Source: Escherichia coli
Lineage (GTDB): Bacteria; Pseudomonadota; Gammaproteobacteria; Enterobacterales; Enterobacteriaceae
Direction: 5' to 3' (one strand)
Assembly: GCF_003334315.1 (NCBI RefSeq)
Contig: NZ_QOWR01000006.1
Length of the DNA stretch: 64,000 nt
Part shown: positions 9,047 to 11,217 of the stretch, piece by piece
Numbering within the stretch: position 1 is the stretch's first letter
Layout: every line of letters starts with the position of its first letter
Notes under the pieces: generated by a model
The model's input: the letters and a program-made list of their open reading frames with translations, nothing else
Told to the model about the DNA's origin: nothing
Database searches by the model: none
Position numbers and translations under genes: made by a program

Positions 9047-10225
9047 ATGACTGCTGTAAGCCAAACCGAAACACGATCTTCTGCCAATTTTTCGCTCTTC
9101 CGCATCGCTTTTGCGGTTTTTCTCACCTACATGACCGTAGGGTTGCCGTTGCCGGTTATCCCGCTGTTTGTTCATCATGAACTGGGCTATGGCAATACCA
9201 TGGTCGGCATTGCCGTCGGGATTCAGTTTCTGGCTACGGTGCTGACGCGTGGTTACGCCGGGCGACTGGCCGATCAATATGGTGCAAAACGTTCGGCGCT
9301 TCAGGGAATGTTAGCTTGTGGTCTGGCTGGCGGCGCGTTGCTGCTGGCGGCGATTTTGCCTGTCTCCGCACCGTTCAAATTTGCCCTGTTGGTCATCGGG
9401 CGTTTGATTCTTGGCTTTGGTGAAAGCCAGTTACTGACAGGCGCTCTGACCTGGGGGTTAGGCATCGTAGGGCCAAAACACTCTGGCAAAGTGATGTCAT
9501 GGAATGGAATGGCGATTTACGGTGCCCTCGCTGTTGGTGCTCCGCTTGGCCTGTTGATTCATAGCCATTACGGTTTTGCCGCACTGGCGATCACCACAAT
9601 GGTATTACCCTTACTGGCGTGGGCCTGTAACGGCACAGTGCGCAAAGTACCGGCCCTGGCGGGAGAACGTCCATCGCTGTGGAGCGTTGTCGGGCTTATC
9701 TGGAAACCAGGGTTAGGTCTGGCACTACAAGGCGTTGGTTTTGCTGTTATCGGGACTTTCGTTTCGCTCTACTTTGCCAGCAAAGGATGGGCGATGGCGG
9801 GCTTTACTCTTACCGCGTTTGGCGGCGCATTTGTCGTGATGCGCGTCATGTTTGGCTGGATGCCGGACCGTTTTGGCGGCGTGAAAGTGGCGATTGTCTC
9901 TCTGCTTGTAGAAACGGTGGGCTTGTTGCTGCTCTGGCAAGCCCCAGGTGCATGGGTCGCATTAGCGGGCGCGGCGTTAACCGGAGCCGGATGTTCGCTT
10001 ATCTTTCCTGCGCTGGGCGTGGAGGTGGTTAAACGCGTCCCCTCACAAGTTCGCGGCACCGCACTGGGCGGTTACGCCGCGTTTCAGGATATCGCCCTCG
10101 GCGTCTCCGGGCCGCTGGCGGGAATGCTGGCGACCACGTTTGGTTACTCTTCGGTATTTCTTGCCGGGGCGATCTCTGCGGTGCTGGGTATTATTGTCAC
10201 GATACTGTCATTTCGTCGGGGTTAA
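9047..10225 (+). CDS. yfcJ: MFS transporter YfcJ, 392 aa
   Basis: 12-TM-like hydrophobic ORF; recognised sequence. Confidence 0.9.
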
Positions 10226-11217
10226 CGAACCAGCCAGACCAGCATCAGGATAATCGCGACTAACAGTATCCACAGCGCGGGACGCGTTGCCATATTTTGC
10301 AACGTGTCCATCATCGGTGGAAAAGGATTAAGCAGCGGTTGCATAACACGCGGATCAATCCCTTTAACCCGCCGTTGATAAAGCTGATTAAGAATATCCT
10401 CGGCCTGGGCAGAAGAAAGCGATGATTGCGCAGAAAGACCATATTTTTGCTGGATATATGCCGATAACGCCGCCAGTTCACTGGCATCTAAAGGTTGTTT
10501 TAGCGTCATCTGTAGTGATTCCAGCGTCGGCGTATTTTGCTGGCTTAGCGTCTGACGCGCCTGTAGCCAGGTCACCAGATGGTTAAACAGTTTCGCTGGA
10601 ATTAACTCGCCATCTTTCACCCCGGAAAGTTCCAGCATCGATTGCCAGATCTGTTTGCTGGGTTCCCCCGTTGCCGCCGCAAGTTTGGTCACCAGCTGTT
10701 TTAGCGCATTGTGCTCCGCCGGTAATAAAGGACGGTCGGTCGCCTCGCGCTGCTGTGGTTGCGGAATAACCATCTTCCCTTCCTGCAACAGGGTGAGAAT
10801 GGTTTTTAATTGCTCCGGTGAGAGCTGATTCAGCGGCGTCTGACCAAAGTTATGACGGATATAATCCGTGACCGCCTGACGATTATTCCCCAGACGTAAA
10901 TACTCCCCTAATTGCGCTAAAAGCTGGCGGGCAGAATGGCTTTTTTGCGCGGCCAGCAGACGTTGCGCCAGATTATGCTCAGCGGCAGGGAAGTGACGCG
11001 AAAGCAGCGGTGAATCTCCCGACAGACCAATATCGTGCCTGATACCCGCCCACAGTTCTGCTCTTTGCTGTTGCGTCAGTGAGGTCACTTTCGTCATTAA
11101 GCTTTCCAGCGAAGTACGTTGCTGACTGGATAAAGGCTGATTGCCTGTGCCAGACGGCAGATTATCTCCCTGACCTGGTGGTTGCCCAGGAGGAGGGCCG
11201 GAAATAGGTTGTATCAT
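10222..11217 (-). CDS. flk: Flagellar regulator Flk, C-terminally membrane-anchored, 331 aa
   Basis: Recognised sequence; Gln/Pro-rich N-terminus and C-terminal TM helix ([18 protein letters not shown]). Confidence 0.88.

Follow-up and report, generated by a model that had tools for sequence, protein, structure and literature searches.

The convergent genes yfcJ and flk of Escherichia coli share the four nucleotides TTAA at their stop codons

In E. coli, yfcJ encodes a transporter and flk a flagellar regulator; the two genes lie tail to tail and end on the same four nucleotides (nt). In the 64,000-nt stretch of contig NZ_QOWR01000006.1 (assembly GCF_003334315.1) that we analyzed, hereafter the window, their coding sequences (CDSs) overlap by the tetramer TTAA. 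We consider it highly probable that this is an ordinary and evolutionarily stable overlap of two unrelated genes that belongs to the YTAR class of tetramers. That class of 4-nt convergent overlaps, with CTAA, TTAA, CTAG, and TTAG as its tetramers, was described by Lillo & Krakauer in 2007, who counted 58 convergent overlaps in E. coli (PMC2174442). The genes yfcJ and flk are on opposite strands and meet 3' to 3', they share one legal tetramer, and the arrangement is conserved in orthologous pairs. The pair thus fits the published class exactly, with no substantive difference, and what we add is its history across genera. The arrangement is already known and ordinary, and we have no evidence that the overlap itself has a function. 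The original prediction for this locus held that the overlap leaves no room for terminators, so that each gene must be terminated inside the other. That reasoning is supported, although it is not new, since the need for terminators to sit inside the partner's CDS was pointed out for convergent overlaps of E. coli in 2007 (PMC2174442).

The geometry of the junction is unambiguous. Positions 10220-10229 read GGTTAACGAA, and the TAA stop codon of flk is the reverse complement of 10222-10224. The central TA (10223-10224) belongs to both stop codons, while each of the two outer bases is the third base of one stop and pairs opposite the wobble base of the partner's last sense codon. Sequence, open reading frames (ORFs), and annotation agree that both stops lie within a single palindromic TTAA, as originally predicted. 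Specifically, the same ends are given by the RefSeq/PGAP annotation of four strains (W5-6, K-12 MG1655, E24377A, and an E2348/69 derivative). In K-12 MG1655, where the locus at 2.437-2.441 Mb is that of the window in reverse orientation, flk is annotated at 2437950..2438945 on the + strand and yfcJ at 2438942..2440120 on the - strand. The gene order at the locus is fabB, yfcJ, flk, pdxB. Mis-called stops, which would have undone the prediction, are ruled out by protein-family matches that run end to end (positions 1-392 of 392 in NCBIfam NF009048 for YfcJ and 1-338 of 339 in NF007987 for Flk), together with the C-termini of homologs. The coordinates of the features discussed here are collected in Table 1.

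Several consequences follow directly from this geometry. Because the CDSs overlap by 4 nt and leave no intergenic DNA, any terminator of either gene must lie inside or beyond the partner gene. For the same reason, full-length yfcJ and flk mRNAs are complementary at their 3' ends. The predicted absence of intergenic space holds up, and the implied antisense overlap of 3' ends is supported by the geometry and by the listing of this pair as a convergent excludon, a nearly automatic call that is discussed below. The claim that each gene is terminated inside the other is slightly too strong, in that read-through transcription could pass the partner entirely.

The overlap is not peculiar to one strain. 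Positions 9000-11400 of the window are 100% identical to E. coli W5-6, and this region was found in all 5426 complete E. coli genomes searched; a 61-nt probe centered on the junction was at least 95% identical in 5424 of them. To follow the pair across genera, we aligned Flk relatives, fetched 80 species-representative flk loci, and extended the matches of both proteins as far as the stop codons. The exact overlap of 4 nt (-4) occurs at 33 loci, made up of 30 species representatives and 3 E. coli strain records. Its carriers include Escherichia species, E. albertii, many Citrobacter, Salmonella arizonae/diarizonae, Yokenella, Intestinirhabdus, and a few other Enterobacteriaceae. Across these 33 loci, only TTAA, TTAG, CTAA, and CTAG are used, all four are found, and the central TA is invariant. 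The outer bases toggle between T and C or between A and G, which restricts the stops to TAA or TAG; TGA is used solely at loci with a spacer. Judged from these sequences, the -4 arrangement is stable and not strain specific.

A telling case is the divergent flk/yfcJ allele of strain E24377A (locus L002, 2486-4662). It is only about 74% identical at the DNA level, with protein identities of 63% for Flk and 86% for YfcJ, and it retains the TTAA overlap. Normal genes flank the divergent segment, which suggests that it is an introgressed or ancient allele.

Other genera have the same two genes without the overlap. A spacer of 18-93 nt separates flk from yfcJ in Enterobacter, Lelliottia, Leclercia, Huaxiibacter, Pseudocitrobacter, Cedecea, and Buttiauxella, and the spacer reaches 340 nt in Pseudenterobacter. 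In Kosakonia, Phytobacter, and some others, the genes lie 0.7-2.3 kb apart (about 1.6-1.7 kb in Kosakonia and Phytobacter), and 15 loci have no yfcJ within 2.5 kb. Spacer or not, the C-termini of YfcJ and Flk are nearly constant in length (..FRRG* and relatives), with YfcJ ending one residue earlier in three spacer loci. Since the proteins are conserved while genera with spacers exist, the overlap itself is dispensable. Its persistence would instead reflect the cost of losing a stop codon rather than any regulatory role of the overlap. Reading by hand from the E. coli sequence, we find that stop loss adds about 57 amino acids (aa) to YfcJ and about 25 aa to the hydrophobic tail of Flk. Such long tails would by themselves account for the stability of the TTAA tetramer.

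Conservation of this kind could also be taken as a sign of selection on the antisense overlap. If the pair were a functional excludon, the overlap would have been selected because it makes expression of flk and yfcJ mutually exclusive, through transcriptional interference and/or RNase III. The ExcludonFinder survey, which draws on RNA sequencing (RNA-seq) and was published in 2025, does list flk-yfcJ among 165 convergent excludons of MG1655 (PMC12288877, Table 1), and it reports that excludon pairs generally show higher synteny; furthermore, several genera, as well as the divergent allele of E24377A, keep the -4 geometry. However, the survey called an excludon when it was present in at least 50% of 58 MG1655 transcriptomes and called overlaps with a threshold of 50% of mean coverage (PMC12288877). 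With such a coverage threshold, a call for two overlapping CDSs is almost automatic once both genes are expressed. The likeness to excludons therefore consists of the listing by name and of 3' ends that are complementary by necessity, whereas the trait that defines excludons is mutually exclusive expression, which for flk-yfcJ is hypothetical. The spacers of other genera speak against a selected overlap, selection on protein length accounts for the conserved stops, and no functional link is known between Flk and this Cu/arabinose-related transporter of the major facilitator superfamily (MFS). Taken together, these observations make a functional excludon unlikely. Pull-down with p19 does not bear on the matter, as the authors of the survey consider it uninformative for convergent pairs (PMC12288877).

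How transcription ends at a junction without intergenic DNA is a separate question. No canonical intrinsic terminator was found by consensus and hairpin scans within 150-200 nt of the junction in either direction. On the flk side, the hairpin scan detected no hairpin of -8 kcal/mol or better with a T-rich tail (U-tract) within 200 nt past the stop. On the yfcJ side, the consensus scan returned a 7-bp stem at 10273-10289 with a poor tail, CCATATTTTG, and a stability of -8.0 kcal/mol; this is the sole terminator-like site past either stop. It competes with an 11-bp stem at 10280-10309, the best hairpin past the yfcJ stop, which has no U-tract and holds its UUUU run in the loop.

These two structures could in principle provide intrinsic termination or a defined 3' end for yfcJ about 50-85 nt past its stop, either as a terminator embedded in the flk CDS or as an element that promotes polymerase collision or pausing. 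There is precedent for both ideas. Among genes in convergent overlaps of E. coli, 23 of 116 have a predicted rho-independent terminator inside the partner (PMC2174442), and stem-loops position polymerase collisions at convergent pairs (bioRxiv 10.1101/2022.10.23.513370). The consensus-scan hit and the -18.1 kcal/mol of the longer stem also speak for this reading. Yet the strong stem lacks a U-tract, the U-run of the weak stem is poor and distal, and the folding z-score of the region is only -1.9. Both hairpins are specific to E. coli, and neither the E24377A allele nor other Escherichia species show the pairing. For the longer stem, 52% of alignment cells are paired, equal to slid controls, and the consensus structure computed with RNAalifold is essentially zero at -1.5 kcal/mol, results on which we reject a conserved terminator or hairpin in the partner's CDS. 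In addition, no 3' end has been reported there by Term-seq (PMC7815308), and the flk side has no equivalent element. We therefore regard termination at these hairpins as distinctly unlikely.

Hairpins at the orthologous junctions do not change this assessment. At the other -4 loci, there is no terminator-like hairpin past the flk stop, and past the yfcJ stop there are scattered marginal ones. A different structure is a 9-bp stem in Citrobacter and Salmonella, TCGCGCCGA...TCGGCGCGA, which lies inside flk 57-97 nt past the yfcJ stop (columns 60-68 with 92-100 of alignment A2). It is paired in 75% of cells compared with at most 47% in slid controls, and only the yfcJ-sense RNA can accommodate its substitutions, as G-U pairs. 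We do not accept this stem as functional, because the changes are one-sided from GC to GU, the stem was derived from the same sequences, and it is absent in Escherichia. No convincing compensatory changes were seen in it; there were two isolated cells with double changes, no more than in shuffles. A search for Rfam families found none near the junction.

A protein could also terminate transcription here. A perfect pho box lies just upstream of the yfcJ stop and is identical to a PhoB site mapped by chromatin immunoprecipitation sequencing (ChIP-seq) at K-12 2438961, with a ChIP score of 8 (PMC10294691, Table 1), among the higher intragenic scores in the retrieved rows of that table. Under phosphate limitation, PhoB bound at this site might stop polymerases arriving from both sides and so act as a conditional terminator. 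The proximity of the box to TTAA and its occupancy in vivo speak for the idea, but the transcript data do not: deleting phoB leaves yfcJ RNA unchanged (163 vs 187), and the authors class intragenic PhoB sites as inert and nonconserved and argue against repression by roadblock (PMC10294691). Moreover, the box is restricted to E. coli proper: other Escherichia species lack it, as does the E24377A allele. A block at this site would also halt transcription of yfcJ 13 nt before its own stop codon. We judge a PhoB roadblock to be extremely unlikely. The box was also rejected as a promoter element, as inspection by eye of the sequence downstream of 10212 found no acceptable, properly spaced -10 hexamer, and no regulation was seen in the published experiment (PMC10294691). 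It is very unlikely, too, that the pair is a true excludon kept by its forced 3' antisense overlap, with PhoB modulating read-through under phosphate starvation in E. coli proper. If true, such an arrangement would connect a checkpoint protein of flagellar assembly with a transporter required for the biogenesis of bo3 oxidase.

Our preferred account of an ordinary overlap leads to a simpler picture of termination. RNA polymerase leaving either gene would transcribe on into the partner and yield untranslated antisense RNA. This read-through RNA would be ended mainly by Rho acting on C-rich, G-poor, ribosome-free transcript, and head-on collisions between polymerases may add to termination. After trimming of the products by 3' exonucleases, the 3' ends would be heterogeneous and the two mRNAs would be complementary over a short 3' stretch. 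Because both genes appear to be weakly expressed, any effects are probably minor. Rho-dependent termination of untranslated and antisense RNA is established in E. coli, and the read-through RNA here, which has more C than G on both strands, resembles a typical Rho substrate.

The composition of the read-through RNA is consistent with this picture, more so on one side than on the other. Past the flk stop, a stretch antisense to yfcJ has an excess of C over G of 0.10-0.175 per 80 nt, which places it in the 88th-98th percentile of the window and makes it a candidate region for Rho loading. The first 80 nt of RNA past the yfcJ stop, which are antisense to the part of flk coding for the hydrophobic tail, are mildly C-rich; among all the 80-nt windows from the two strands of the window, they rank at the 76th percentile. 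From this composition and the lack of alternative terminators, termination is most likely factor dependent, probably Rho dependent, and heterogeneous or diffuse.

Published maps of transcript ends can be set beside this account. In the Term-seq and bicyclomycin tables of Adams et al. (2021, PMC7815308), there is no discrete 3' end in K-12 2438600-2439199, which covers about 300 nt around the junction; the absence of discrete listed ends fits ends that are diffuse or of low level. The supplements of the SMRT-Cappable-seq study mention neither flk nor yfcJ. Counts for yfcJ are low in RNA-seq (163-187, vs thousands for many genes in the same table; PMC10294691). Four points weigh against Rho as the main agent. 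First, the Rho-region table of Adams et al. flags neither 3' end, so that the junction differs from the catalogued cases in having no bicyclomycin-sensitive region at the 3' end of flk or yfcJ, although both genes may be too weakly expressed for detection (PMC7815308). Second, the excess of C over G directly past the yfcJ stop is only mild. Third, the hairpin at 10280-10309, at -18 kcal/mol, could set a processed 3' end or a pause site. Finally, the proposed dependence on Rho is built on composition and on the absence of alternatives.

The same catalogue places its only Rho region in flk or yfcJ at K-12 2440043, about 77 nt into yfcJ from its 5' end (PMC7815308, supplementary file 2). A hairpin, CCGCATCGCTTTTGCGG followed by TTTTTCTC, lies at 9100-9124 on the + strand, at about codons 18-26 of yfcJ, and coincides with this region. 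The two together may represent premature termination or attenuation of yfcJ.

The reach of read-through can be bounded on both sides. For yfcJ, the consensus scan found no + strand terminator between 10310 and the start of pdxB at 11316, and transcripts could run into pdxB, which is on the same strand. Three noncontiguous operons have been listed for E. coli, and the resulting trio of yfcJ, antisense flk, and pdxB is not one of them (PMC12288877). For flk, read-through could extend as far as the inverted repeat downstream of fabB, which is the first clear bidirectional terminator in its path. A REP-like palindrome (approximately 8790-8826) is found between fabB and this terminator, and the locus tags of W5-6 jump over RS06950 between fabB and yfcJ.

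Table 1. Features at and around the yfcJ/flk junction, in window coordinates
Feature	Position	Strand	Details and basis
yfcJ CDS, 392-aa MFS transporter	9047..10225	+	Stop TAA 10223-10225; ORF list, RefSeq, NCBIfam NF009048
flk CDS, 331 aa, hydrophobic C-terminal segment	10222..11217	-	ORF list, RefSeq, NCBIfam NF007987, homolog alignment to last residues
TTAA common to both CDSs	10222..10225	both	Sequence
Pho box TGTCACGATACTGTCATT	10195..10212	+	In last 30 nt of yfcJ, ends 10 nt before TTAA; unique exact match in window
Two competing hairpins inside flk	10273..10309	+	Weak stem 10273-10289 (-8 kcal/mol); 11-bp stem 10280-10309 (-18.1 kcal/mol)
First 80 nt of yfcJ read-through RNA, antisense to flk hydrophobic-tail segment	10226..10305	+	C 24, G 19
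C-rich, G-poor flk read-through stretch, antisense to yfcJ	9641..9960	-	Candidate Rho-loading region, 260-580 nt past flk stop
Perfect 11-bp inverted repeat flanked by A-run and T-run	8858..8883	both	AAAAGGGAACC-N4-GGTTCCCTTTT, downstream of fabB

Other convergent pairs put the junction in perspective. Our comparison comprises the six pairs in the window together with the published count for E. coli (PMC2174442). Canonical terminators are present at yfcD/yfcC and nuoN/yfbM, and repetitive extragenic palindromic (REP) elements at yfcL/mnmC. The remaining three, rpnB/yfcH, yfbS/yfbR, and yfcJ/flk, have neither. With half of the pairs in the window lacking a canonical terminator, the lack of one at yfcJ/flk is not unusual. 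The 32-nt spacer of yfcD/yfcC holds a textbook bidirectional intrinsic terminator, AAGAGCCGCAATTGCGGCTCTT, at 30537-30558. The yfcJ/flk junction has neither of the marks of such a terminator, a GC-rich stem-loop flanked by A- and U-tracts and a structure that is conserved. It resembles the bidirectional terminators and programmed collisions described by Wang, Watters, Ju & Liu (bioRxiv 10.1101/2022.10.23.513370) in being a convergent pair with probably overlapping transcription, and collisions could contribute here. Those systems, however, need a stem-loop between the gene boundaries, whereas yfcJ/flk has no intergenic DNA and no conserved stem-loop.

The significance of the overlap is small, and its interest lies in being a clean textbook case of convergent genes with common stop-codon bases. 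The arrangement limits both stops to TAA or TAG and also constrains the wobble position of the two final sense codons. There are also practical implications for genetics. Deletions or tags at either 3' end, such as Keio-type knockouts of yfcJ or flk and C-terminal tags, alter the stop or the 3' region of the partner, and any phenotype assigned to a mutation in yfcJ or flk calls for a check on the neighboring gene. In addition, the pair could be used, at low expression, to test Rho- or collision-dependent termination in the absence of intergenic DNA.

A number of minor observations accompany these results. Strong palindromes (about -14 to -27 kcal/mol) fill most of the spacers between flk and yfcJ in other genera, and many are REP-like. 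The REP-like palindromes of Enterobacter, Lelliottia, and Leclercia have the form GCCGGGTGGCG...CTTACCCGGCCTAC, reach -17 to -27 kcal/mol, and carry no U-tracts. Examples lie just 3' of the flk stop (loci L031-L081), at 3506-3589 in L039 and at 3506-3545 in L041. Among the loci that we fetched, contig CACSKA010000009.1 (L053) bears the label 'Chryseobacterium sp. 18061', yet its flk-yfcJ locus is that of an Enterobacteriaceae member and is almost the same as in 'Citrobacter sp. 18056' (L055); the assembly is probably mislabeled or contaminated. Compared with W5-6, the window accumulates 27 nt of insertions and deletions after 32 kb. The gene hxpA (37078-37728) has 651 nt in the window, which divides evenly into codons, and 652 nt in W5-6, where it is annotated as frameshifted; the yfbS/yfbR spacer (39648-39679) is 32 nt here vs 58 nt in W5-6. 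Finally, Rfam gave a single hit in the window, the nuoG RNA motif (RF01748, 48 bits), which lies at 48926-48968 on the + strand, just upstream of nuoG.

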